From positions 11,757 through 75,756 of the IMG/VR virus record IMGVR_UViG_3300047400_000324: DNA of 64,000 nt. The stretch is one strand, 5' to 3'. Position numbers and translations under genes: made by a program. Positions 11,301 through 46,816 of this stretch are shown here, in pieces; position 1 is the stretch's first letter, and the number at the start of each line of letters is the position of its first letter. This stretch comes from a virus (taxonomy: Duplodnaviria > Caudoviricetes). The notes beneath the pieces are model-generated. The model saw nothing but the letters and a program-made list of their open reading frames with translations. It was not told the DNA's origin and ran no database searches.

Positions 11301-11915
11301 TTATTGAATCTCATTCACTTTTGTATAAGTAGCATTTATACTAGTATATCTACCATATTCAGAAATAATATCAGAGCGTATGAATCCATATTTTGAAAAA
11401 ATATCGTTCCACCAAGTTTCTTCTTTCAATGTTACATGATAATTTTCATCAGGAAATGTTGCTATACCAACAATAAAATGACCATTCATATTGAGATGAT
11501 TGTTTACATTTATAAACAATTGATGCAAATCTTTTTCATATATATGTTCTAGAACATCGAACGCCGAAATTGCATCGAATTTTATTATTTGTTCAGAATC
11601 ATCTACAATTTTAAATGGTTTAGTTATATCTGCCGTAAAAAGATTATGGGGAATATTATTCCATTCTCCAGTTTTATTCTTAAATCCATAATCGCTACCA
11701 TCTATGCCAATTGCAAAAATATTATTTTTTATAAATTGCGATACAAATCCACCACCGGCACAACCCAAATCCAAATATTTCATGTTTGGGCCCAATTTAC
11801 GAATCAAATTTCTAACATATAAACCGTTTTTTGTATTATCTTGTTTAGTTCCCTTTGGATTTGTATGATCATAGCTTTCACATGCTATTGGAAAATCTGT
11901 CAATAATTTATGCAT
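11301..11915 (-). CDS. Class I SAM-dependent methyltransferase
   Basis: YLDLGCAGGGFV motif I; FDVLEHI. Confidence 0.85.
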   Translation of the reverse strand: MHKLLTDFPIACESYDHTNPKGTKQDNTKNGLYVRNLIRKLGPNMKYLDLGCAGGGFVSQFIKNNIFAIGIDGSDYGFKNKTGEWNNIPHNLFTADITKPFKIVDDSEQIIKFDAISAFDVLEHIYEKDLHQLFINVNNHLNMNGHFIVGIATFPDENYHVTLKEETWWNDIFSKYGFIRSDIISEYGRYTSINATYTKVNEIQ

Positions 11916-14290: not shown

Positions 14291-14317
14291 TGGTTTGTCT
14301 CCTTTTATAATATATAT

Positions 14318-14797
14318 TTATGCTGCCGCTTGCAGTTCCTTAAATCTATCGGCAGCGGCAGAGGCTGCAAATGCAGCAGGTTTTACAACAGGTTTAATAT
14401 TGCATGTTCCAACAATATATCCTATTGCTTGTTGAATGACACACGATGAACCTCTTTGTTCATCTGGATTTAAATCGAGATGTATTTCCGTATACCGTTC
14501 TCCTATCGATGATTTTATTTTTTCATAAAATTCGACTACTTTATAAACCTCCTTCATCAATCTTATAGAAGGTTTTCCTGGTCTTACATCATAATCCATT
14601 TCTCTAGTTACTTCACCAAATATTTTAGCGCCGCGATTGCCATCTATATGTATAACAGCAACCGTCGCATAATCTGCCATCCATTTATTTTTATATCTAA
14701 ATCTTTCTGAATCGCATCCTATGTATATCTTAGAATTTGCAGACGAGGCTGCAATATAAGATGTGACTTGATTTATATCTAATGAGTTCATAATCAT
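14318..14797 (-). CDS. YkuK/DUF458 RNase H-like protein
   Basis: KIYIGCDS, RLMKEV, EIHLDLN, KP.AFAASAAADR. Confidence 0.75.
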   Translation of the reverse strand: MIMNSLDINQVTSYIAASSANSKIYIGCDSERFRYKNKWMADYATVAVIHIDGNRGAKIFGEVTREMDYDVRPGKPSIRLMKEVYKVVEFYEKIKSSIGERYTEIHLDLNPDEQRGSSCVIQQAIGYIVGTCNIKPVVKPAAFAASAAADRFKELQAAA

Positions 14798-14801
14798 GAT
14801 A

Positions 14802-15227
14802 TTATATCAGTTTATGTGAATTGTCAACAAAAATTTTTCTCAAATGCGATCTATGAACTTTTACAAAAATCCAATCGTTGTAAAATTTATCGGATTCCAA
14901 AACTTCATATTCAAACTGAAATTTTGCTTCAATATAGTTCATTTCACCACGAGTCTTGCACAATCTAAGAATAGTTCTAACAAATTTATTTTCGCCAACA
15001 GATTTGACTTCTTCAATTAAATATTTATTAGACCCCCAATATTTTTTCCAATCGGAATCAACTAATATTCTTTTTTTCTTGCCCTTTATTTGTTTCGTTT
15101 TTTTGAATTTCAACATTTTTTTACCAATATACATTTTGCCAGTATCGATACGAGAAATCATATAAACAAAACCTATGTAAGGAACAAGTTCAGCCTCATC
15201 TATTTCCTTTCCTTTGTATATCCACAT
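14802..15227 (-). CDS. GIY-YIG-family endonuclease-like protein
   Basis: GFVY.I.....GKMYIGKK, SDWKKYWGS, FYNDWI. Confidence 0.65.
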   Translation of the reverse strand: MWIYKGKEIDEAELVPYIGFVYMISRIDTGKMYIGKKMLKFKKTKQIKGKKKRILVDSDWKKYWGSNKYLIEEVKSVGENKFVRTILRLCKTRGEMNYIEAKFQFEYEVLESDKFYNDWIFVKVHRSHLRKIFVDNSHKLI

Positions 15228-15268
15228 ATTGAGAGTTCCATAATATATCTCTCAATATTTATATTTTT

Positions 15269-29316: not shown

Positions 29317-29943
29317 TCAATGCCTTGTTGTTACTACTATTGTTTTTCTGGTATATGGATTATGTTTAACTAGATGCGAATACAATTTCACATCGGGATG
29401 TTCCAATTTCAATTTAGCAAATTCTTTATGGTTACCTTCATCGTCATCATAAAGATGCACCTCTTTCAATTTATCTCGTTTAATTAAATCCGATAAAACT
29501 CTTCTTTTTCGATCTCCAGTAGATGTGCCTTCTACATTTCCAGCCCTTCTCAAATGTGTTTTATCTATATCTATACCATATCTTTTTAAATGATGTTTGA
29601 CTGCCAGTTTATCGTCTAAATCCGATCTAGCTGTAAGTATTTCTGTTCTATTTCCTCTTTGGCGAAGTTTATTCAATCTATTTATCATCGAACGAATTGG
29701 AGTTCCGGATTTACGCAATACTTTTGCAGATTTAAATTCACCAAAATCATATTTGTGACCTAAAGGCAATTTATGTTTATTGAATTCCTGTGTGGTTAAA
29801 CTTCTAACTCTATTACCGTTGCTATCTATAACGTGAATTTTAATTTTATGAGGATCGTGGTGTATCAATGTATCATCTAAATCGAAGAAAAAAGCTTTAT
29901 TTCGTATACCCTCAGTTATAAATTCTTTGAAAGAAATCATCAA
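29317..29943 (-). CDS. HAD-superfamily phosphatase
   Basis: FDLDDTL motif I, ILTAR motif II, K, LYDDD motif IV; N-terminal FKEFITE. Confidence 0.8.
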   Translation of the reverse strand: MMISFKEFITEGIRNKAFFFDLDDTLIHHDPHKIKIHVIDSNGNRVRSLTTQEFNKHKLPLGHKYDFGEFKSAKVLRKSGTPIRSMINRLNKLRQRGNRTEILTARSDLDDKLAVKHHLKRYGIDIDKTHLRRAGNVEGTSTGDRKRRVLSDLIKRDKLKEVHLYDDDEGNHKEFAKLKLEHPDVKLYSHLVKHNPYTRKTIVVTTRH

Positions 29944-29958
29944 AATTTCCTTTCTTTT

Positions 29959-30032
29959 TATAAATAGTTAATACTAGTCGCGGACTGCCATCCCACTAGT
30001 TCTATTGCTAGAGAAAAAAAAGGAGCAACAGC
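29959..30032 (+). promoter_or_regulatory. Late promoter plus structured leader of HNH gene 1
   Basis: TATAAATA 29959-66; ACTAGT-CGC-GGA(CTGCCA)TCC-C-ACTAGT-TCTA; TTGCT/AGCAA hairpin overlapping GGAG. Confidence 0.65.
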
Positions 30033-30611
30033 ATGATTGATATTTATAATTCATCAGATTACAGAAAAATTTTCATGAAAACATATGGTTCTATACCTAA
30101 AGACAAGGACGGTAGATCATATGAAATTCATCATATAGATGGAAATAATTCAAATAATTCTCCAGAAAATTTGAAAGCTGTTTCTATAGAAGAACATTAT
30201 TATATTCATTTGTCTCAAGGTGATTATGGCGCTTGTTTATTAATATCAAGTAGAATGACTACAACACCAGAAGAAAAGAGCAATTTGGCTAGATCTCATG
30301 TCATTAAACAACTTGAAGAAAATAGACATCCATGGAAAACAGACTCATATCGTGAATCTCAAAGACTAAGAGCTTTATCAGAAAATAATCCATTTCTTGG
30401 AGGTGAAATTCAAAGAAAAAGTAGTAGAAAACGTGTAAGGGAAGGCACACATCATCTTTTAGGCGATAAAACAAATTTTAATATGATTAAAGAAGGTAAG
30501 CATCCATCTCAAAAAATATGGACATGCGAACATTGTGATATTATCGGTAAAGGAACAACTAATTATATTAGATGGCATGGTAATAATTGCAAAAAATTAA
30601 TAAAAAAATAA
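30033..30611 (+). CDS. Free-standing HNH homing endonuclease
   Basis: YEIHHIDGNNSNNSPENL..VSIEEH...H; C-terminal CEHC...WHGNNC; antisense to its neighbours. Confidence 0.9.
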   Translation: MIDIYNSSDYRKIFMKTYGSIPKDKDGRSYEIHHIDGNNSNNSPENLKAVSIEEHYYIHLSQGDYGACLLISSRMTTTPEEKSNLARSHVIKQLEENRHPWKTDSYRESQRLRALSENNPFLGGEIQRKSSRKRVREGTHHLLGDKTNFNMIKEGKHPSQKIWTCEHCDIIGKGTTNYIRWHGNNCKKLIKK

Positions 30612-30636
30612 GTGTCTGGAGTTTCCTCCAGACACT
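30602..30636 (-). terminator. Intrinsic terminator
   Basis: 11-bp stem AGTGTCTGGAG/CTCCAGACACT with GAAA loop, then TATTTTTTT on the minus strand. Confidence 0.85.
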
Positions 30637-30745
30637 CGATAAATTTGCAGCAATGTCGAGCGGAACCCCACCGTTATTCTCAACTATTCCTCAGATTGAT
30701 CTGCTTTGCCACTGCGTCCTAGAAACGCTAATGCTGCTTGAGATT
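30612..30745 (-). ncRNA. Candidate structured small RNA
   Basis: Bounded by TATAAATA (30747-54) and the terminator; several complementary segments; no credible minus-strand ORF. Confidence 0.5.
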
Positions 30746-30765
30746 CTATTTATATTTTTAAGATT

Positions 30766-30969
30766 TTAGAAATAAGAATTTTTAGGTGGATTTAGAAAAA
30801 AACTTGGAGTCCATCCATCAAATCCAGATCCATTATTCAACGATGTCTTTAAAATTTGTGCATCCCATTCATCCTCGCATTGCATTATATTTTGTTCAGT
30901 ACGACTTTCAAAAATTTCATAGATATCGTTATCGTCCACATTTCGTTTAATCATATAATTCATTTTCAT
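30766..30969 (-). CDS. Conserved T4-like small protein
   Basis: LNNGSGFDGWTPSFF motif; located downstream of gene 41. Confidence 0.7.
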   Translation of the reverse strand: MKMNYMIKRNVDDNDIYEIFESRTEQNIMQCEDEWDAQILKTSLNNGSGFDGWTPSFFLNPPKNSYF

Positions 30970-30975
30970 TTTCTC

Positions 30976-32178
30976 CTATGCAAATCCTTCAAATTTCTTA
31001 GAAAATTTAGACCTATTTTGAAAAAATTCATTATCTCGTTGACCATATTCTGTTTTATCCATAATTGGAATGTCGTCCTGTATATTCTCCTGTTCTGTTT
31101 GATCTACATCGTATAATTTCATTTTCGATCTATCGATACCGATAACAAATCGGCGATTTTTAGATAAATCGCTGTATCTATTTTTAAGTTGTTTTACCAT
31201 AATTTGATTGAACGATTCTAACTGTTCATTGCTAATAAGAGCAAACATCAAATCGGCAGTCGCAGGTAATCCGAAACTTTCCGAAACATCTGTCAAAACG
31301 ACATCGGACGACGCATACCCACTTCTTGTTGTTTGTGTAGCTGTAACTATAGGAAGATCGTGTTCAACAGCTAAACCACGAAATTCTTCCGCAATAGCCT
31401 TTACATAAGTATAACTATTTACCGACGCGGTATATTTTACTCGGCTAGAAGCACAAATATTGAGATAATCGATATAAATGATATCTGGAATAAAATTCTT
31501 TTTCAATTTCAATTCATTCAATAAATGTCTGAAATTTGCTGCACCAGCAGTAGACGTTGGATATTCTTTGATAATAAGCTTACCAACAGTTTTCTTTTTT
31601 ACCCTATCGATTTTTTTCATGAAAGAATCTTTTGGAACGGTTTCAATTTCATCCAAAGACATATCCAATAGATTTGCATCGATACGTTCTGCAATTCTTT
31701 CTTCAGCCATTTCCATAGTAATATAAAGAACATTTTTACCATCAAGCAAATTGCTAGCGGCAAAATGACACATCGCAAGACTTTTCCCAACACCGGTATT
31801 ATGGCTTGAAATTCCATTAGTATAATATCTATGATTTTCATGTTCTACATTAATATCTACGATAGGAATTATATTGCCGGTATAACGAACAGCTCCCCTT
31901 TCAAATCCATTTTTTGTTAAAAAATTTGCATATTCAATTTTAGATAATTGTAGCGCGCTTATCCATCCATTATCAGTTTCAAATAAATGTTCTGCATTGC
32001 ATAATACAGATTCACTATTATTTTCCAACTGAAGGCTGTATTCTTCATAAATTCCCTTATCGATAAAGAAATTTACTCCTACCCATCCATCGGGAGAATC
32101 TACTTCAATTTCATAATTTTCTTCTAACATGGTTTTTATTTTACTGATAGGGATTTCAATTTCAGTCCAAATTTTCAT
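30976..32178 (-). CDS. 41: gp41 helicase C-terminal part fused to a 127-aa C-intein
   Basis: SD AGGAG before MKIWTE (32178). Intein blocks CNAEHLF and VDINVEHENHRYYTNGISSHN, then TGVGKS (rest of Walker A), YITMEMAEE, IYIDYLNI, ATQTTR, SESFGLPATAD. Confidence 0.92.
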   Translation of the reverse strand: MKIWTEIEIPISKIKTMLEENYEIEVDSPDGWVGVNFFIDKGIYEEYSLQLENNSESVLCNAEHLFETDNGWISALQLSKIEYANFLTKNGFERGAVRYTGNIIPIVDINVEHENHRYYTNGISSHNTGVGKSLAMCHFAASNLLDGKNVLYITMEMAEERIAERIDANLLDMSLDEIETVPKDSFMKKIDRVKKKTVGKLIIKEYPTSTAGAANFRHLLNELKLKKNFIPDIIYIDYLNICASSRVKYTASVNSYTYVKAIAEEFRGLAVEHDLPIVTATQTTRSGYASSDVVLTDVSESFGLPATADLMFALISNEQLESFNQIMVKQLKNRYSDLSKNRRFVIGIDRSKMKLYDVDQTEQENIQDDIPIMDKTEYGQRDNEFFQNRSKFSKKFEGFA

Positions 32179-32192
32179 TAAAAAATTTCTCC

Positions 32193-32265
32193 TATAAATA
32201 ATATTGTAGATCGCGATGCTACCAACATCCATCTACTCTAACGTCTGAAAAGGAGACATCAGCAA
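32193..32265 (+). promoter_or_regulatory. Late promoter plus structured leader of HNH gene 2
   Basis: TATAAATA 32193-200; GTAGAT-CGC-GATG(CTACCAA)CATC-C-ATCTAC-TCTA; GTCT/AGAC hairpin overlapping GGAG. Confidence 0.65.
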
Positions 32266-32901
32266 ATGTATTTACGCATTTATAATAATCTATGTTCATC
32301 AAATTGTCAACGAAAAGAATTGTGGTTGCCAGGTTCTGGTATTCATAGACATCATATATTACCAAAACATATGGGCGGATTGGATGAAGATAATAATTAT
32401 ACATATCTATATCCACGCGAACATCAAATAGCACATTTTTTATTATGGAAAATATATAAAAATCCAAATGATCTTAGATCAATGCATATGCTTGGTGCAA
32501 AATTAACTATTTCACAGAGAAAAATTGTAGGCATTTGGTGTAGAGACAACAAAATAGGAATTCATGGTTCTTCCTCTGAAAATAGAAAACAGTGGGCTTT
32601 AAAAGGATTAGAAACACAAAAAGAATCAAATAATAAAAAAACATTTTATTATTGGTCTACAGAAACTGGCAGAAAAGAACGATGTGCTTTGGGGGGAAAA
32701 TCTGGTTCTAAAACACAAATAAAAAATAAAATTGGTATATTCGATTCTAATAAAAGAACTGAATATGCTAAACTTGGCGGACAATCATTGAAGGGAATGA
32801 TTTGCGTAACCAATGGTATTCATAGAACTAGAATTAAACCTCATTTATTAGATGAATATGTGTCAAATGGTTATCGTTTAGGATTTACTCTTTTTTCCTA
32901 A
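32266..32901 (+). CDS. Free-standing HNH homing endonuclease between the split gene 41 halves
   Basis: HRHHILPKHMGGLDEDNNYTYLYPREHQIAH.LLWK. Confidence 0.9.
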   Translation: MYLRIYNNLCSSNCQRKELWLPGSGIHRHHILPKHMGGLDEDNNYTYLYPREHQIAHFLLWKIYKNPNDLRSMHMLGAKLTISQRKIVGIWCRDNKIGIHGSSSENRKQWALKGLETQKESNNKKTFYYWSTETGRKERCALGGKSGSKTQIKNKIGIFDSNKRTEYAKLGGQSLKGMICVTNGIHRTRIKPHLLDEYVSNGYRLGFTLFS

Positions 32902-33520
32902 ATCTTATTCTAACTTTTGTATCTGGATGAACACATCCTGCCAATATAACATTCAATGTCTTTCTAGAAAGCCCGCCTTTAGTGATAAGATTCATGTATT
33001 CCAGATTGAAAGGCATTTTTGCTTCTTTACGATGATAAAAATCGTAACGAGTTTCAGCGTCTTCCAAAAAACTATGACCAATATTAGAATCGAAACTTAC
33101 AGCCAGAGCATCGGATAAAATCTGTGGTATTGCGCCTTTATCATATTTGCTATTTTTATTATCCAAAATTTGAATAGAATCCATAATAGCATTATAAACG
33201 GCTTTTTCTTGACAAAATTTTTCTGTTTTTTCTACAAGCCAATCTACTTCTGTTTTAGGATCATAAGAGAGTTGATCTATGATATCTTTGCACATATCAT
33301 GAATTGGTTGACTTATACCAGTTTTTGAATTCATTTCAACTTCAATCGCTTCCTTTGATGGAAAGCGATTGAATTTGTTTACATAATTTTCAATCAATTC
33401 AAAAATAATTTTGTCGGAAATATCATGAAAATATTCCGATTTTAGAAAAGGTATTACTTTGCGTGCATAATCGTCACGATTTATAATATTACCAAAAATT
33501 ACTTGTTCAAAAGACGCCAT
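32885..33520 (-). CDS. 41: gp41 helicase N-terminal part fused to a 16-aa N-intein
   Basis: gp41 N-terminus (RKVIPFLKSEYF, EKFCQEKAVYNAI, VSFDSNIGH); ends NVILAG-CVHPDTKVRIRFRKKE*. Confidence 0.92.
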   Translation of the reverse strand: MASFEQVIFGNIINRDDYARKVIPFLKSEYFHDISDKIIFELIENYVNKFNRFPSKEAIEVEMNSKTGISQPIHDMCKDIIDQLSYDPKTEVDWLVEKTEKFCQEKAVYNAIMDSIQILDNKNSKYDKGAIPQILSDALAVSFDSNIGHSFLEDAETRYDFYHRKEAKMPFNLEYMNLITKGGLSRKTLNVILAGCVHPDTKVRIRFRKKE

Positions 33521-41655: not shown

Positions 41656-41917
41656 TCATTGATTATTGATTGATTTTGGTGGACCAGCACGGTACTGCCC
41701 CGTGTCTTTCTGCGTGCAAAGCAGATGTGCTACCTTTTATCACTACGGGCCCAATTCCTTGATTCTGTCTAGAAAATATTGCAATACAATTTTATGCTCT
41801 CTATTTTCTTTCTTATTCATTTTTTTAACATTTTTTACATTCAATTTATTTATCACTTCAAATTGAAATGCATTTTTCAAAAAAATGGATATAGAATCAG
41901 TCATATGATATCAATTT

Positions 41918-42337
41918 CTATCGAATTTCTTCTGACAATTCTTTATAACCAGCCCAAGAAGGGTGAATTCTATCGTTCTGCAACTTATGCGTAGTAATAA
42001 GCTTATCGCCAAAATTACCAGCAATAGTTTGTACAATATAATTGATATCTGGTTTGCAAAACTTTTCATTGCAGGGAGGCATAATCCAAAATACTCGATC
42101 TGCCTTTACGGCAGACCTCATTTTCATCAATTCATCGTATGTTTTAATGCCTTTATAGTCATTTGTTCCCAAACTGATAACAACAGTATGTGCTGTAAGA
42201 TCCTTATGTTCCCGATCGATGAATTTTTGATTCCATTGCCATGTAGTCCATCCACTCTTTGCATATTCTACGCATTCGGTTTTAACACTATGAGTTCCTA
42301 CAGCAATACTATCGCCCAAAATAATACAGTCCAACAT
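41918..42337 (-). CDS. SGNH/GDSL-like hydrolase
   Basis: LGDSIA, G, SLGTND, DRIHP blocks. Confidence 0.75.
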   Translation of the reverse strand: MLDCIILGDSIAVGTHSVKTECVEYAKSGWTTWQWNQKFIDREHKDLTAHTVVISLGTNDYKGIKTYDELMKMRSAVKADRVFWIMPPCNEKFCKPDINYIVQTIAGNFGDKLITTHKLQNDRIHPSWAGYKELSEEIR

Positions 42338-42339
42338 TT

Positions 42340-42648
42340 TTATTCCTCCGTTTTGGTATAAATGTATGTAACATCGGATCCATATGATGGAACCAACATC
42401 AGTTTTTCCGGCATACCATTTTGATCTTTATTGCCAATATAACCAGTGATAAAAATAGTATCTGGAAATTTGTCAGGTGTAAGTTGCCGAAGGATTTTTG
42501 CTTGATCGTCGCATTTCATCTTAAGACGTTCTATTTCTTTTACAGCATTTGTTATAAGTTTAGTAAAAGCGTTTGGAAGACCACGAACCGATGCCGCTAA
42601 AATAATTTCATGCAATTCATCGATGATATTATTGGTATTTTGCGTCAT
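42340..42648 (-). CDS. Hypothetical protein
   Basis: In-operon ORF. Confidence 0.55.
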   Translation of the reverse strand: MTQNTNNIIDELHEIILAASVRGLPNAFTKLITNAVKEIERLKMKCDDQAKILRQLTPDKFPDTIFITGYIGNKDQNGMPEKLMLVPSYGSDVTYIYTKTEE

Positions 42649-42696
42649 ATCATAGTAGCTTTCACTGAATTATTAAAAGGCAACAAACAAAAATAA

Positions 42697-42773
42697 TGGT
42701 GGAAGCGGTCCGATTCGAACGGACGATAAATCGGTTATGAGCCGACGGCCTTAAACCACTTGGCGACGCTTCC
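42697..42773 (-). tRNA. tRNA with CAU anticodon (elongator Met or Ile2)
   Basis: GGAAGCG/CGCTTCC-A-CCA; GTCGG-CTCATAA-CCGAT. Confidence 0.9.
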
Positions 42774-42829
42774 ATTTATATTATGTCGATAATGTAACAC
42801 GAAAATTTATTCATGTCAACTATTTTATT

Positions 42830-42904
42830 TGGTGCGAGATATAGGGTTTGAACCTATGACATTTTCGGTGTAAACGAAACGCTCTACCACTGAGCTAATC
42901 TCGC
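42830..42904 (-). tRNA. tRNA-Val (UAC)
   Basis: GCGAGAT/ATCTCGC-A-CCA; TTTCG-TTTACAC-CGAAA. Confidence 0.93.
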
Positions 42905-42914
42905 ATAAATTTAA

Positions 42915-42991
42915 TGGTCCGTGCGGCTGGATTTGAACCAGCGACCCCATGGTCCCAAACCATGTATTCTACCAGACTGAACTACGCGCGG
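42915..42991 (-). tRNA. tRNA-Pro (UGG)
   Basis: CATGG-TTTGGGA-CCATG; encoded CCA. Confidence 0.92.
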
Positions 42992-42997
42992 TAATTA

Positions 42998-43085
42998 TGG
43001 CGGAGAGACTGGGATTTGAACCCAGGGAACATTTCTGTTCGGAAGTTTTCAAGACTTCTAGTTTCAGCCACTCACTCACCTCTCC
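42998..43085 (-). tRNA. tRNA-Ser (UGA)
   Basis: GAAGT-CTTGAAA-ACTTC, long variable arm, G73, CCA. Confidence 0.92.
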
Positions 43086-43111
43086 TGAAAACAAAATGAT
43101 TAATGTAGATA

Positions 43112-43187
43112 TGGCGCACCGTCAAGGAATCGAACCCTGCTATTCGGTTTTGGAGACCGATACATCGCCACTAAATGCTTACGGTAC
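43112..43187 (-). tRNA. tRNA-Trp (CCA)
   Basis: GTACCGT/ACGGTGC-G-CCA; TCGGT-CTCCAAA-ACCGA. Confidence 0.9.
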
Positions 43188-43189
43188 TA

Positions 43190-43278
43190 CGGAAATGAGA
43201 GGATTCGAACCTCCGGATCATATTTCTACGATCAACGGTTTAGCAAACCGCCACTTTAAACCACTCAGTCACATTTCC
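43190..43278 (-). tRNA. tRNA-Ser (GCU), no encoded CCA
   Basis: GGAAATG/CATTTCC-G; GCGGT-TTGCTAA-ACCGT; long variable arm. Confidence 0.9.
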
Positions 43279-43292
43279 AGTTTATTCGAATA

Positions 43293-43826
43293 TCAGAACC
43301 GATAGTTTACACCAGCACTAAACACGTGATCTTGCTTGATAGCAGAATTGCTACGATTCATTGGACGAATTTCACGATATCGGGCATCCAATTCAACAGA
43401 TTCCGAAACGGCAATTCTAGTACCTGCGCCAACATCCCAAATAGCCCTTTCAGAATTTGTTGTGCGAATGGTCGAAAGCCCGTTGAATGAATAACCAGCG
43501 CCAGCCAAAACATAAGGTGTTACGACTGTATTGGGAATACGATATTGTACAATTCCGTTTACCATGGCACGATAACCTTCACGATCAGACCGCCACACCT
43601 TGTCAATATCGGCCTCGGCTCGCAAATGCTTTCCAATTTGAAATCCAGCATCTACACCAAAAACACGTTCATTGAAATTGCCGGTCGATGACCCAAGAGA
43701 ACCACCAACATAAGCACCGGTTCGATCTAGATTTACAGAGGTTGGAAATGCTGTATCTGCTGCCATAGAGGCTGCTTGCAATCCAGCAATCATCATAACA
43801 GCCGCACTAATTGTCTTAAAATTCAT
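43293..43826 (-). CDS. Outer-membrane beta-barrel protein (Omp25/RopB/OmpA-TM-like)
   Basis: Signal peptide, GAYVGGSLG, TPYVLAGAGY, DVGAG, ELDARYR, C-terminal GVNYRF. Confidence 0.88.
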   Translation of the reverse strand: MNFKTISAAVMMIAGLQAASMAADTAFPTSVNLDRTGAYVGGSLGSSTGNFNERVFGVDAGFQIGKHLRAEADIDKVWRSDREGYRAMVNGIVQYRIPNTVVTPYVLAGAGYSFNGLSTIRTTNSERAIWDVGAGTRIAVSESVELDARYREIRPMNRSNSAIKQDHVFSAGVNYRF

Positions 43827-43931
43827 TTTTTACATCCTTTACAATTATCAAAAAATAAGCATATTGGAAATGTGGTACAATAATTACCCTATGCTTTAAA
43901 CCACGAATAGGAACCAATATGTTTATATGAG

Positions 43932-43939
43932 TATTTATA
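43932..43939 (-). promoter_or_regulatory. Late promoter for the OMP/tRNA transcript
   Basis: TATAAATA on the minus strand. Confidence 0.65.
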
Positions 43940-43971
43940 CACTATAATGAATGGTTTGTCAACCACAAAAT

Positions 43972-44394
43972 TTATACCAATTCGATTTTATCTCTAACTA
44001 CGTGCAATCTAACTTGTTTCGCATCGGCAATACGTTCTCCTCCAAAACGAAGATAATCTCGCCCTCCATCGACAAAAATGCCTTTATGAGTTCTATAGTC
44101 ATGTCTATATCTACTATAGATAACTTCATCGTCTATCTGTATTCCAGAAAAATCTTCGATAGCACTTATTGCATCGGTGATCATAGAATCACCTTGATCA
44201 GATATATAAAATCCAAACCAATTCGAACCTTGGGGATGAGCCTGTTCGGTATAAAAAACAGCAACTGGAAAATTTACCCATCCACCATATTTGTTTTTCA
44301 AACAACTTTCAAAAACATATGTTGCATTCATTTTGTTTTCTATAATTTTAATGCTTGCATCTTTGAGAAAAGACGATTCATTCAAAATTTTCAT
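43972..44394 (-). CDS. Conserved phage hypothetical protein
   Basis: IYSRYRHDYR....IFVDGGRDYLR. Confidence 0.7.
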   Translation of the reverse strand: MKILNESSFLKDASIKIIENKMNATYVFESCLKNKYGGWVNFPVAVFYTEQAHPQGSNWFGFYISDQGDSMITDAISAIEDFSGIQIDDEVIYSRYRHDYRTHKGIFVDGGRDYLRFGGERIADAKQVRLHVVRDKIELV

Positions 44395-44397
44395 AGT

Positions 44398-45405
44398 TTA
44401 AAATATCTCTCTAAACATAATTTCAAATGCCGCAGCTAAAAATCCAGCAGCAGGAATAGTCAAAATCCATGCAATAAGAATTTCTTGAGCCTTTTTCCAT
44501 TTGACTTTTGGTTCCGATTGACTCGCACCAACTCCAAGAATGGAACCTGTTATAGTATGAGTAGTACTGACAGGTATACCCAATCCACTGGCGATAAACA
44601 ACATCATTCCTCCACCAGTTTCTGCCATAAATCCGCCTCTGGAATCCAACCTAGTAAGTTTGAATCCTAATGTTTGCACAATTCTCCAACCACCGGCAAG
44701 AGTCCCAAGTCCCATTGCAATAAAACTACACCATACAGCCCACATTGGAATATTGCTAGCAGTAGATACAAAACCACTTACAATCAATATCAACCAAATA
44801 ATACCAGCTGTCTTTTGTGCATCGTTCGATCCATGCCCTAAACTATAAAATGCAGCACTGCTTATTTGAGCCCAACGAAAAAAACGCAATTGTTTTTCTG
44901 TAGTTTCAGGCAATAAATTTCTTATAATAGTATTGATACCAGCTCCAAGAATAAATCCGATACAAGGACTAGCAACAATAAAAATAAGAGTTTTTCCCAA
45001 TCCTTCCCAAAGAAGATTATTTGCACCACCAATAGCAACAACAGATCCAATAATACCACCTATCAGTGCATGACTGCTACTTGTAGGTAAACCGAAATAC
45101 CATGTTATCATATTCCAAGAAATAGCACCACAAAGTGCTCCAGCTATAACATAAAGATCGATGGCGCTTGGAACTACAATACCTTTTCCAATTGTAGCGG
45201 CAACTGAAAGATTCATAATAAACATGGAAATGAAATTGCATATAGCTGCCATAACTACAGCTTGAGTTGCCGTCAAAGTTCCAGTTGCAACAACTGTTGC
45301 AATACTGTTTGCGGCATCGTGAAACCCATTTGTAAAATCGAAAATAAGAGCAAGCAATATCAAAGATATCACAATCAATGTTAAATTTGTCATTTTTTCA
45401 TCCAA
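44398..45405 (-). CDS. pit: Inorganic phosphate transporter (PiT family)
   Basis: FTNGFHDAANSIAT, PTSSSHALIG, HGSNDAQK, PVSTTH signatures. Confidence 0.95.
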   Translation of the reverse strand: MDEKMTNLTLIVISLILLALIFDFTNGFHDAANSIATVVATGTLTATQAVVMAAICNFISMFIMNLSVAATIGKGIVVPSAIDLYVIAGALCGAISWNMITWYFGLPTSSSHALIGGIIGSVVAIGGANNLLWEGLGKTLIFIVASPCIGFILGAGINTIIRNLLPETTEKQLRFFRWAQISSAAFYSLGHGSNDAQKTAGIIWLILIVSGFVSTASNIPMWAVWCSFIAMGLGTLAGGWRIVQTLGFKLTRLDSRGGFMAETGGGMMLFIASGLGIPVSTTHTITGSILGVGASQSEPKVKWKKAQEILIAWILTIPAAGFLAAAFEIMFREIF

Positions 45406-45421
45406 TCATAACGTCATTTTT

Positions 45422-45498
45422 TGGAGCTGATTGCCGGTAACGCTCCGGTCCTCTCCAGTGTGGAAAACTGGGGGCCCATCTATCTAGACCAAATCAGC
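45422..45498 (-). tRNA. Atypical tRNA-Gly (UCC)
   Basis: GCTGATT/AATCAGC-U73-CCA; CCAGT-TTTCCAC-ACTGG; T loop AGCGTTA. Confidence 0.65.
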
Positions 45499-45937
45499 GA
45501 ATAATATACTCATAGTTAATAGTTTTTTCATTTTCTTTTAAAAGAACAGCACCATTCGATAAATGGAATCGGCGCGCCATTTCCGTTTTTGGACTCAATG
45601 TGACAAATCTTTTAATATGCGGTTTATTTTTTTGAATGTATTTTACTATATCGAAAATAATTTGTCTACCATATCCTTTTTCATACGACCAGACCGTATA
45701 AAAAACAGCAATTCGCGGTGGATCGGCAAATTCTGGAAATGCATTCAATTCTTCTACAATTGTTGGAATTTGATCTAGATAAGCTACACAACAAATTGCC
45801 AACGGTGCACAAGAATTATCTATTTGAAAAATTTGTTTGCCAAAACTTGTTCTGAATTCATAATCCAATTCAGGTCTTACAGGATCGTCTTTGATATAAT
45901 CTTTGTAATTATTTGGCATTTCACGAAAATGAGACAT
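45494..45937 (-). CDS. Conserved phage protein, possible GNAT fold
   Basis: KDDPVRP, AVFYTVWSYEKGYGR, TLSPKTEMARRFHL.NGA. Confidence 0.55.
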   Translation of the reverse strand: MSHFREMPNNYKDYIKDDPVRPELDYEFRTSFGKQIFQIDNSCAPLAICCVAYLDQIPTIVEELNAFPEFADPPRIAVFYTVWSYEKGYGRQIIFDIVKYIQKNKPHIKRFVTLSPKTEMARRFHLSNGAVLLKENEKTINYEYIIR

Positions 45938-45939
45938 TT

Positions 45940-46131
45940 TTATTTCTTTTTTCTGCCATTACCCTTTTTATATCCAGTGCCAAAAGGAGAATAACCCGTA
46001 ACAACCCAAGAGTTTTTTTGTTTTTTACCGGCTTGATTTGCAACTTTTGTAAAAGAAGCAGTACTGCCATCTTTATATCTTTTAGTTTTTTGTAAGCTTG
46101 ATTTAGAAACAGTTTTTGCCATAATATTCAT
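45940..46131 (-). CDS. Small basic hypothetical protein
   Basis: Lys-rich in-operon ORF. Confidence 0.5.
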   Translation of the reverse strand: MNIMAKTVSKSSLQKTKRYKDGSTASFTKVANQAGKKQKNSWVVTGYSPFGTGYKKGNGRKKK

Positions 46132-46165
46132 TTCTTTTATTGATTAATTTATATAATATATATAA

Positions 46166-46241
46166 TGGTGCCCCTTGTCCGACTCGAACGAACCACCTGC
46201 TGATTACAAATCAGCTGCTCTACCAGATGAGCTAAAGGGGC
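46166..46241 (-). tRNA. tRNA-Thr (UGU)
   Basis: GCCCCTT/AAGGGGC-A-CCA; GCTGA-TTTGTAA-TCAGC. Confidence 0.94.
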
Positions 46242-46244
46242 ATA

Positions 46245-46274
46245 AAGACCAGCTGATATATATCAGCTGGTCTT
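46245..46274. repeat. Perfect 30-bp palindrome
   Basis: aagaccagctgatat|atatcagctggtctt. Confidence 0.95.
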
Positions 46275-46279
46275 GAAAA

Positions 46280-46372
46280 TGGTAGGGAATGGCGGTAACG
46301 ATCCGCCCCGTTGCCCTCATCTAGGACTCTCCCGGGTTTATAAGGCCCAGCCGCACACCTGTGCTATCCCCC
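46280..46372 (-). tRNA. Atypical tRNA-like gene with UAU anticodon and long variable arm
   Basis: GGGGGAT/ATTCCCT-A-CCA; mini D arm GCAC-AGGT-GTGC; loop CTTATAA; V arm GTCCT/AGGGC; T arm GGCGG-ATCGTTA-CCGCC. Confidence 0.6.
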
Positions 46373-46435
46373 ATAATATGGGTGAGAAGTTAACCATGAC
46401 TTCTCGCGCGTTTATTGAGGAACGACCCTTTAATT

Positions 46436-46510
46436 TGGCTTGCCAGGTAGGACTCGAACCTACAACCATTCGGTTAACAGCCGAATGCTCTACCATTGAG
46501 CTACTGACAA
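46436..46510 (-). tRNA. tRNA-Asn (GUU)
   Basis: TTGTCAG/CTGGCAA-G-CCA; TTCGG-CTGTTAA-CCGAA. Confidence 0.94.
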
Positions 46511-46523
46511 TCAAATTCTTTTC

Positions 46524-46600
46524 TGGAGAACCGGGTGAGATTTGAACTCACATAAAACAGGATTTGCAATCCTGCGCCTAAGCCATTCGACCACCGGTCC
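46524..46600 (-). tRNA. tRNA-Cys (GCA)
   Basis: GGACCGG/CCGGTTC-U73-CCA; CAGGA-TTGCAAA-TCCTG. Confidence 0.92.
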
Positions 46601-46609
46601 ATTTTTTAT

Positions 46610-46816
46610 TTATACAACGTCATAAAAATAATACAAATCGAATAAGCTTCCATCCTCTCGAATGGATCGCATGCGTTTGTTCGGATAAGACCTTTGAAGA
46701 TCCCGAACGATCCGATTTGTAACAGATGGATTCTGATTTACACCATTGGTAATGGTGGTAACATGAACCCAGCCGGAACTATTGTCCAGATATTCGATTT
46801 TTAGATCGTCTTCCAT
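46610..46816 (-). CDS. Hypothetical protein
   Basis: ORF downstream of a TTGACA promoter, with SD AAAGG. Confidence 0.55.
   Translation of the reverse strand: MEDDLKIEYLDNSSGWVHVTTITNGVNQNPSVTNRIVRDLQRSYPNKRMRSIREDGSLFDLYYFYDVV

Follow-up and report, generated by a model that had tools for sequence, protein, structure and literature searches.

What governs two dissimilar HNH endonuclease genes that start behind the same structured leader? The genes, here HNH gene 1 and HNH gene 2, lie in a 64,000-nucleotide (nt) stretch of viral DNA (the window), which is positions 11,757 to 75,756 of the IMG/VR record IMGVR_UViG_3300047400_000324, a 75.7 kb viral contig with an estimated completeness of 46%. 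Their proteins share only ~16% identity. A sequence-only reading of the window had proposed a regulatory RNA or operator module, acting in cis and travelling with free-standing HNH genes. We found that the leader is a covarying cassette with two facing late-promoter boxes, both conserved at the nucleotide level, and that its selected fold is, by the pairing counts given below, that of the strand opposite the endonuclease mRNA. We put at roughly 55% the probability that the two convergent promoters yield the nuclease mRNA and a structured cis-antisense RNA that represses endonuclease translation.

Anatomy and distribution of the leader cassette

Both copies show the same order of elements. The late-promoter box TATAAATA is followed by a 6-bp stem, CGC, a 3–4-bp stem with a 6–7-nt loop, a bulged C and the return stem; then come TCTA, a small hairpin including the AG of the Shine-Dalgarno (SD) motif GGAG, CAGC and the ATG. 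The sequence-only reading had described these leader features for both genes, and all of them are where it placed them. They are listed here together with the two hairpins of the opposite strand (hairpins A and B) and the genes.

29959–29966, plus strand: copy 1, sense late-promoter box TATAAATA; its minus-strand complement belongs to the U-rich tail that follows hairpin B
29973–29978 and 29995–30000: copy 1, outer stem ACTAGT/ACTAGT
29979–30004: copy 1, CGC (29979–29981), GGA/TCC around the loop CTGCCA (29985–29990), bulged C (29994) and TCTA (30001–30004)
29973–30000, minus strand: copy 1, hairpin B: outer stem of 6 bp, then a single G-C pair with a bulged G on each side, inner stem of 3 bp, loop of 6 nt
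30002–30031, minus strand: copy 1, hairpin A, 8 bp including one G.U (30004/30029), with TCTA and CAGC making its base and a 14-nt loop that contains CC, the complement of the GG of the SD
30022–30035, plus strand: copy 1, SD GGAG (30022–30025), CAGC (30029–30032) and the ATG of HNH gene 1 (from 30033)
30041–30048, minus strand: copy 1, inward late box TATAAATA within codons 3–6 of HNH gene 1
30033–30611, plus strand: HNH gene 1, 192 amino acids, I-TevIII-like (Pfam HNH_3, E 2.9e-10)
32193–32200, plus strand: copy 2, sense late-promoter box TATAAATA
32206–32211 and 32231–32236: copy 2, outer stem GTAGAT/ATCTAC
32212–32240: copy 2, CGC (32212–32214), GATG/CATC around the 7-nt loop CTACCAA (32219–32225), bulged C (32230) and TCTA (32237–32240)
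32206–32236, minus strand: copy 2, hairpin B: outer stem of 6 bp, then the G-C pair with a bulged G on each side, inner stem of 4 bp, loop of 7 nt
32238–32262, minus strand: copy 2, hairpin A, 9 bp including two G.U (32240/32260 and 32242/32258), with a 7-nt loop
32252–32268, plus strand: copy 2, SD GGAG (32252–32255), CAGC (32260–32263) and the ATG of HNH gene 2 (32266–32268)
32269–32275, minus strand: copy 2, inward late box GTAAATA (sense TATTTAC, codons 2–4, M-Y-L frame), 5 nt from GCUG
32266–32901, plus strand: HNH gene 2, 211 amino acids, MobE-like (phrog_655 homing endonuclease, E 4e-18)

HNH gene 1 also matches the intron-like DNA endonuclease family phrog_12324 (E 9e-37) and I-TevIII-type genes (35% identity, E 1e-32), while HNH gene 2 is 29% identical to T4 mobE and has 78 homologues in IMG/VR. 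RNAfold recovered the bulged hairpin in both window copies, and their common core TCGCG-N-CTRCCA, expected 0.02 times in the window, is found there twice. A covariance model (R1) finds these two copies and no other in the contig, with scores of 73.7 bits (copy 2) and 61.3 bits and E-values of 1e-15 and 1e-12, respectively. A third, weak match at 14306–14401 (22 bits) lies inside the 3′ end of a coding open reading frame (ORF) and was rejected as a chance match.

To define the family, IMG/VR was scanned with a pattern made of the conserved unpaired letters only, in which neither a promoter nor an ORF was demanded. Among the 131 matches listed, at least ~100 are true copies, 96 of them distinct. 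The alignment set comprises 106–107 distinct copies from other viral contigs, of which 96 of the 107 came from the pattern scan; 13 copies were gathered through protein homologues, independently of the pattern. In IMG/VR, homologues of both window endonucleases have this leader too, with stems that differ in sequence. With few exceptions, the true copies show an xTAAATA box 5 nt ahead of the first stem, and their ATG follows CAGC immediately. The late-promoter box that the sequence-only reading had placed ahead of the module thus stands not only at 29959–29966 and 32193–32200 but also, 5 nt before the fold, in 97 of the 107 copies family-wide.

An endonuclease ORF lies directly downstream of nearly all copies, and this restriction of the cassette to endonuclease genes bears on the proposed link with HNH genes. 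The 94 intact downstream ORFs have a mean identity of only ~10% per alignment column and fall into several families: NUMOD3 (27), HNH (13), HNH_3 (9), GIY-YIG (6), HNH_5 (5), SegE-type GIY-YIG (4), TnsA-like (2) and the I-TevI DNA-binding domain (2). The endonuclease association therefore holds, while its limitation to free-standing HNH genes does not, as GIY-YIG, NUMOD3, TnsA-like and other genes are headed by the module as well. The search for covariance-model homologues and an endonuclease link that the sequence-only reading had suggested gave 13 matches in 94 loci (579 kb) of related phage DNA, and in the loci inspected (L005, L083–85) these stand at endonuclease gene starts.

The cassette does not accompany every homologue of a given gene. 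At the same site in gp41, some 55 homologues of HNH gene 2 (L114–L172) have a short unstructured leader (TATAAATA..AGCAGGGACAGGGAAATG) and no cassette, which indicates that the cassette is an exchangeable module rather than part of the gene, and that leader modules have been swapped between otherwise homologous endonuclease genes. Single loci depart from the usual arrangement. At L257:124–211, a cassette without a normal endonuclease gene stands directly before a terminase large-subunit gene. At L225:1178–1268, the cassette is followed by an 11-codon remnant (MNIYNNTILLK) and then by a different ORF starting GSGFEREVAKFL, which, judged by eye, looked like a Holliday-junction-resolvase/PD-(D/E)XK-type nuclease. 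In five further loci (L179, L236, L242, L284 and L292), cassettes head endonuclease genes broken by stops or frameshifts.

As in the sequence-only reading, the module corresponds to no named RNA family: at the gathering score, Rfam detects only tRNAs in the window, and no match up to E = 1 was found on either strand of 29900–32350. Whole-region megablast against cultured phages gave no match, a blastn search of 50,697 records of cultured phages with two copies of the cassette yielded none that was credible, and the covariance model had no match in S-PM2, Syn9, P-SSM2, HTVC008M or S-CRM01. In a pattern scan of 185,579 bacterial and archaeal genomes, none of the 80 matches listed passes the covariance model.

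Strand of the fold and the inward-facing box

The stems had been said to covary on the strength of two copies. The larger alignment goes far beyond what two copies show: in 106–107 copies, 14 of the 19 base pairs carry compensatory changes, and the observed score was reached by none of 500 shuffles. RNAalifold on 13 copies gave compensatory changes in 8 of 11 pairs.

The pairing is not equally good on both strands, and here the proposed fold on the gene strand is not supported. For the same 19 pairs and with the same tool, 99.1% of the cells pair on the antisense strand versus 88.2% on the sense strand. The helix of hairpin B is 99.4% paired on the antisense strand, with 9 of 11 pairs compensatory, and 96.3% paired on the sense strand, also with nine compensatory pairs, while the lower helix of the SD hairpin is 98.8% paired antisense versus 70.7% sense. 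Across 107 copies, the non-Watson-Crick cells on the sense strand amount to ~116 A.C or C.A plus one invariant A.C, with ~4 G.T inside helices; G.U wobbles number ~220 antisense versus ~11 sense. Since an A.C on the gene strand is a G.U wobble on the opposite strand, the fold belongs to the opposite strand. The pair between the middle base of CGC and the bulged C illustrates this, as it is G-C in 73 copies, A.C in 22, A-U in 12 and G.U in none, a series that forms a wobble path only if read antisense.

A hairpin partly covering GGAG, as previously described, is present on the sense strand, where the AG is held in a 4–5-bp stem and the GG lies in the loop. Its longer form of 8–9 bp exists only on the antisense strand, on which TCTA pairs with CAGC (C-G, U-A, G.U). 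The conservation of TCTA and CAGC is therefore explained by their mutual pairing on that strand. The folding energies agree with this assignment. The mean minimum free energy (MFE) of the core is −18.2 kcal/mol antisense versus −13.6 kcal/mol sense, the antisense core has the greater stability in 103 of the 106 copies (p 8e-19), and in 105 of the 106 its MFE structure is the one with two hairpins. In the window, copy 1 (29967–30035) folds with −18.0 kcal/mol on the minus strand versus −10.9 on the plus strand, and copy 2 (32201–32268) with −20.5 kcal/mol (z −2.9) on the minus strand versus −12.5 (z −1.5) on the plus strand. By these counts, the selected fold is that of the strand opposite the endonuclease mRNA.

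The sequence-only reading overlooked a second, inward-facing late box in the first codons of the genes. Its antisense consensus, (A/G)TAAATA-N2-CAU-GCUG..., is as conserved as the outer box. On the sense strand, TATTTA stands 4–7 nt after CAGC in 84 of the 107 copies (exactly 5 nt in 56), whereas in related phages, 0.9% of the other long ORFs (5 of 567) have it at that position. The box is read as M-x-I-Y, M-Y-L, M-I-F-I, M-L-F-I or M-x-Y-L, and thus occurs in all three frames. In all 52 M-x-I-Y genes, codon 2 ends in T (background 0.34); ATT is the Ile codon in 47 of them (background 0.40) and TAT the Tyr codon in 48. The possibility that TATTTA is kept because M-x-I-Y is the GIY motif was rejected, since silent sites are fixed, three frames are used and the box is also found in HNH genes.

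Each box is ~5 nt away from the base of a stem; T stands at −1 and G at +1, as expected for the start of a T4-type late transcript. Within 70 nt upstream of genes in this contig, ATAAATA occurs 17 times in the sense and 5 times in the reverse orientation, and from this bias it is very likely that the phage uses an ATAAATA-type late promoter. The late promoter of cyanomyoviruses is NATAAATA (PMC2984593), and the likeness of this phage's gp41 to that of Kyanoviridae (65–70% identity) points the same way. In a handful of variant copies, read without a systematic count, changes in one box are not matched by changes in the other, which in our reading fits boxes recognized by a protein better than the two arms of a helix.

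On the antisense strand, hairpin B is followed by AC-UUUUAUUUAU, which is the outer box read backwards. A U-rich tail, with at least 5 U in 8 nt and 0–2 nt from the stem of hairpin B, is found in ~87% of the copies. The idea that this tail is stronger where the outward RNA meets a converging gene was rejected (5.4 vs 5.9 U).

A candidate antisense control and its alternatives

The arrangement can be read as a portable cassette of ~85–90 bp, which would comprise the outer late box, a ~56-nt two-hairpin core, the SD, the start codon and the inner, opposite-strand box in codons 2–5. The two facing promoters would be ~70 bp apart, and both predicted transcripts begin exactly at a terminal stem. 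The outer promoter would drive the endonuclease mRNA, and the inner one an RNA fully complementary to the mRNA leader, ribosome-binding site (RBS) and AUG. This predicted antisense RNA would consist of hairpin A (8 bp with 1–3 G.U), a single A as linker, hairpin B (11 bp with two invariant bulged G) and the AC-UUUUAUUUAU tail, at which it may stop to give a product of ~60–70 nt, or from which it may continue into the neighbouring phage gene. Pairing with the mRNA could begin by kissing of the complementary 6–7-nt loops, and collision of the convergent polymerases would be a possible second layer. The net effect would be that endonuclease synthesis is held down late in infection.

Several points weigh against this proposal. 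Firing of the inner box, the existence and accumulation of the antisense RNA, its 3′ end and the repression itself are all steps that we infer. In copy 1, the inward box is 8 nt from GCUG instead of the usual 5, and the tail has only 3–4 U in 8. Hairpin B contains two bulged G, unlike textbook terminators, and a simple terminator scan does not call it. The outer and inner boxes can also pair with each other in read-through RNA, with a mean predicted probability of 0.38. As to the alignment, the TCRCG, CTCTA, GGAG and CAGC columns were fixed by the pattern in 96 of the 107 copies, so that their invariance rests on the 13 protein-found copies; the copies also share ancestry, and the cell counts therefore overstate the number of independent events. 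G.T is tolerated in single-stranded DNA as well, and the wobble asymmetry thus gives the strand and not strictly the molecule. Finally, the searches of cultured phages described above found no cultured carrier of the cassette.

An extension of this mechanism is conceivable, though we hold it as a tentative and on balance doubtful one. The cassette could serve as a shared 'governor' in a large, uncultured clade of T4-like and jumbo phages, whose ~65-nt antisense RNAs would act in trans. Because cassettes hardly differ in hairpin A, the SD region and the start, such an RNA might reach all endonuclease mRNAs of a phage as well as those of co-infecting relatives, and homing would then be inhibited in a copy-number-dependent way, like the 'multicopy inhibition' of IS10.

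Both HNH ORFs lie on the plus strand, while the surrounding genes lie on the minus strand. With respect to these neighbours, the minus-strand box of each cassette points outward.

29317–29940, minus strand: neighbour of copy 1, HAD/polynucleotide-kinase (PNK)-like gene, faced by the outward box of copy 1
30976–32178, minus strand: C part of gp41, faced by the outward box of copy 2
32885–33520: N part of gp41, matching phrog_19 positions 161–361

The gp41 helicase is 65–70% identical to that of Kyanoviridae (T4-like cyanophages and relatives). HNH gene 2 sits inverted between the two parts of the split gene and overlaps 17 nt of the end of the N part. The C part matches phrog_19 positions 362–602 from residue 128 on and has ~127 extra N-terminal residues; its minus-strand RBS GGAG (32189–32192) adjoins the sense box of copy 2. 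Locus L005 shows the same split layout with an inverted endonuclease gene, an arrangement with the look of a 'fractured gene' carrying a split intein (Dassa et al. 2009, PMC2677866). For the neighbour of copy 1, Pfam gives weak matches to HAD-phosphatase families, and phrog_415 'polynucleotide kinase' is matched with an E-value of 8e-14; the RBS of this gene comes straight after the cassette. Just past the stop of HNH gene 1, a minus-strand terminator (30637–30610) consists of an uninterrupted 12-bp stem, a GAAA loop and a run of U. A minus-strand TATAAATA at 30747–30754 lies ~110 nt upstream of this hairpin, and the two could possibly delimit a small late RNA converging on HNH gene 1.

Elsewhere in the window, a third endonuclease-like ORF (14802–15263, minus strand; 141 amino acids, GIY-YIG-like) matches the homing endonuclease family phrog_7363 and also phrog_447, labelled NAD synthetase. 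Its short leader contains TATAAATA (15256–15263) and the hairpin TTGAGAG...CTCTCAA, immediately followed by the ATG, and has no cassette. Eight tRNA genes lie in two clusters on the minus strand of 41680–46600 (Rfam RF00005, 33–74 bits), and a minus-strand TATAAATA (46607–46614) stands immediately upstream of one of them.

These surroundings bear on an alternative in which the inner box is an outward promoter for the neighbouring gene and the two hairpins shield its transcript as a structured 5′ leader or intercistronic insulator. The cassette would then make good what the operon suffers from an inserted endonuclease gene, and endonuclease repression would be secondary or absent. Both outward boxes in the window face a gene start within ~30 nt (29940 and 32178), as do 52 of the 106 copies if any co-directional gene start is counted. 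At copy 1, the strong terminator at 30610–30637 severs the HAD/PNK gene from upstream transcription, and apart from the sole late box at 30041–30048, only two weak sigma-70-type matches (9/12) precede this gene on the minus strand. Promoters for host genes inside the T4 seg and mob genes are known (PMC2988022). Against this, ~30 copies are directed at a converging gene and meet it at its 3′ end, so that antisense RNA is all that an outward promoter could make there, and the U-rich tail is equally good in both orientation classes. Moreover, gp41 is not a late gene in T4. Because ~52 copies face a gene start while ~30 point into a converging gene with tails alike, a neighbour-dependent function is not general, and we regard it as unlikely to be the purpose of the element. 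It is nevertheless compatible with antisense control and does not exclude it: at copy 1, given the poor U-tract and the terminator that isolates the neighbour, the outward RNA may also serve the HAD/PNK gene. The idea that the antisense fold acts solely in read-through RNA of the host operon was rejected, as ~30–34 cassettes are co-oriented with their neighbours. A role at the level of DNA would require the hairpins to form in the single-stranded antisense strand during replication or recombination, in the service of cassette exchange or homing-associated repair. One homologous ~90-bp module before non-homologous nuclease genes does imply recombination at or near the cassette, and G.T is the best-tolerated DNA mismatch, so that the asymmetry alone is compatible with DNA. 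However, the late boxes are placed for transcript starts at the stem bases, a U-rich tail stands behind hairpin B, the conserved SD/AUG geometry follows RNA logic, no recombinase or HUH-type enzyme is associated, and the cassette occurs in both orientations relative to its neighbours and hence probably to replication. We consider such a DNA element very unlikely.

Two further alternatives keep the action on the endonuclease mRNA. In the simpler one, only the sense-strand leader matters: a 5′-terminal hairpin would stabilize the late mRNA, a second one would half-mask GGAG, and the box in the codons would be incidental. The good sense-strand pairing of the first hairpin (96.3%, nine compensatory pairs), the predicted late start at its first base and the pairing of the AG of GGAG in a 4–5-bp stem fit this view; RBS-masking hairpin control is established for endonuclease genes of T-even phages (PMC2988022), and Dassa et al. 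2009 interpret their hairpins likewise (PMC2677866). Yet the sense strand shows almost no G.U and more than 100 A.C mismatches, its lower SD helix is paired in 70.7% of the cells (98.8% on the antisense strand), its fold is the weaker one in 103 of 106 copies, and this view gives no account of the silent-site TATTTA in three frames or of the invariant TCTA and CAGC. We judge it improbable. In the other one, AUAAAUA of the outer box pairs with UAUUUAU of codons 2–5 in early or middle read-through RNA, and this box helix would close a three-way junction around the SD and AUG, from which late transcripts, starting behind the outer box, escape. In its favour, each box is the exact reverse complement of the other, their distances from the fold are symmetric, the box helix has a probability above 0.5 in 37% of the copies, and the logic is the same as for I-TevI, segB and mobE (PMC2988022). 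The probability is, however, ~0 in both window copies, seven A-U pairs closing a multiloop are marginal, box variants are uncompensated in the few variant copies read, and the antisense wobble asymmetry of the hairpins is left unexplained, which makes a long-range mask of this kind decidedly improbable.

Significance and comparison with known systems

Homing endonucleases must be restrained by the phage, and the means known so far (promoter choice, RBS-masking hairpins and autorepression) have each been established for single genes of T4 and Aeh1. Hairpins of what is very probably this element were already described in 2009 (Dassa et al., PMC2677866), and antisense or leader control of selfish nucleases is a known kind of regulation. 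If the antisense control proposed here is true, the cassette would be a new phage RNA family, absent from Rfam, and would explain why TCTA, CAGC and an M-x-I-Y start recur in so many endonuclease genes from the environment. It would also provide an annotation marker for free-standing endonuclease genes and late promoters in uncultured T4-like phages, as well as a compact convergent-promoter/antisense part with natural covarying variants. Should the trans-acting governor also exist, homing endonucleases would have in it their first general system of antisense control.

Among the known systems, the endonuclease genes of T-even phages and Aeh1 (I-TevI, I-TevII, I-TevIII, segB and mobE) resemble the cassette in that a late TATAAATA box immediately precedes them and a hairpin reaches the SD, and they share the purpose of limiting nuclease synthesis (PMC2988022). 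In their scheme, the late promoter lies inside the RBS-masking hairpin, so that late transcripts lack the 5′ arm, escape the mask and are translated (PMC2988022). The sequence-only reading had invoked this scheme, which does not fit the window: the cassette box stops 5 nt short of the first stem, so that each hairpin keeps its two arms in the predicted late transcript. In addition, the cassette folds best on the opposite strand and has a second, inward-facing box. CfrI of the T4-like cyanophage S-PM2, a ~225-nt antisense RNA opposite a homing endonuclease gene, which it links to psbA, shows that such RNAs occur in this group of phages (PMC2984593). Since the covariance model finds no cassette in S-PM2, CfrI and the cassette are different elements.

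The hairpins of Dassa et al. 2009 (PMC2677866) are, matched by description, very probably the same element. The paper reports hairpins in 15 of 16 5′ untranslated regions (UTRs) of free-standing endonuclease genes, 10 of them with TATAAATA, two conserved and mutually complementary motifs, and environmental 'fractured genes' including gp41. The setting is the same, namely T4-like phage DNA whose replication genes are split by a free-standing endonuclease gene, as is gp41 around copy 2. There, the hairpins are taken as sense-strand translational elements from single RNAfold predictions, and the text includes no covariation test, strand test or second promoter. Antisense control would thus reinterpret the hairpins described there.

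In its logic, the cassette most recalls two antisense RNAs of insertion sequences. IS200 art200 (90 nt) covers the 5′ UTR and three codons of tnpA beside an SD-masking stem-loop, and its pairing begins at loops (PMC4513863). IS10 RNA-OUT (69 nt) is made from pOUT, which faces pIN, and ends next to pIN (PMC5006887). The resemblance is one of analogy, as there is no sequence or Rfam relation. The cassette boxes are of the T4 late type, presumably read by a phage sigma factor, whereas the promoters of the insertion sequences are sigma-70 promoters; a lytic phage and a homing endonuclease stand here in place of a transposase, the overlap spans the whole leader, and the cassette is known from sequence alone. 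An opposite-strand promoter, as in art200 and RNA-OUT, is seen in the cassette at the level of sequence (84/107 vs 0.9%), and the predicted antisense RNA has, like theirs, a stable fold of its own. In all three cases, the nuclease gene of a selfish element would be opposed by a short structured cis-antisense RNA that begins within the first codons and matches, as its complement, the 5′ UTR together with the SD and the start codon, for which the cassette offers two facing boxes, a ~56-nt core and complementary 6–7-nt loops. One exchangeable ~90-bp cassette before unrelated nuclease families would then be a general solution, probably acting through antisense RNA, that resembles the way in which transposons tame their transposases.

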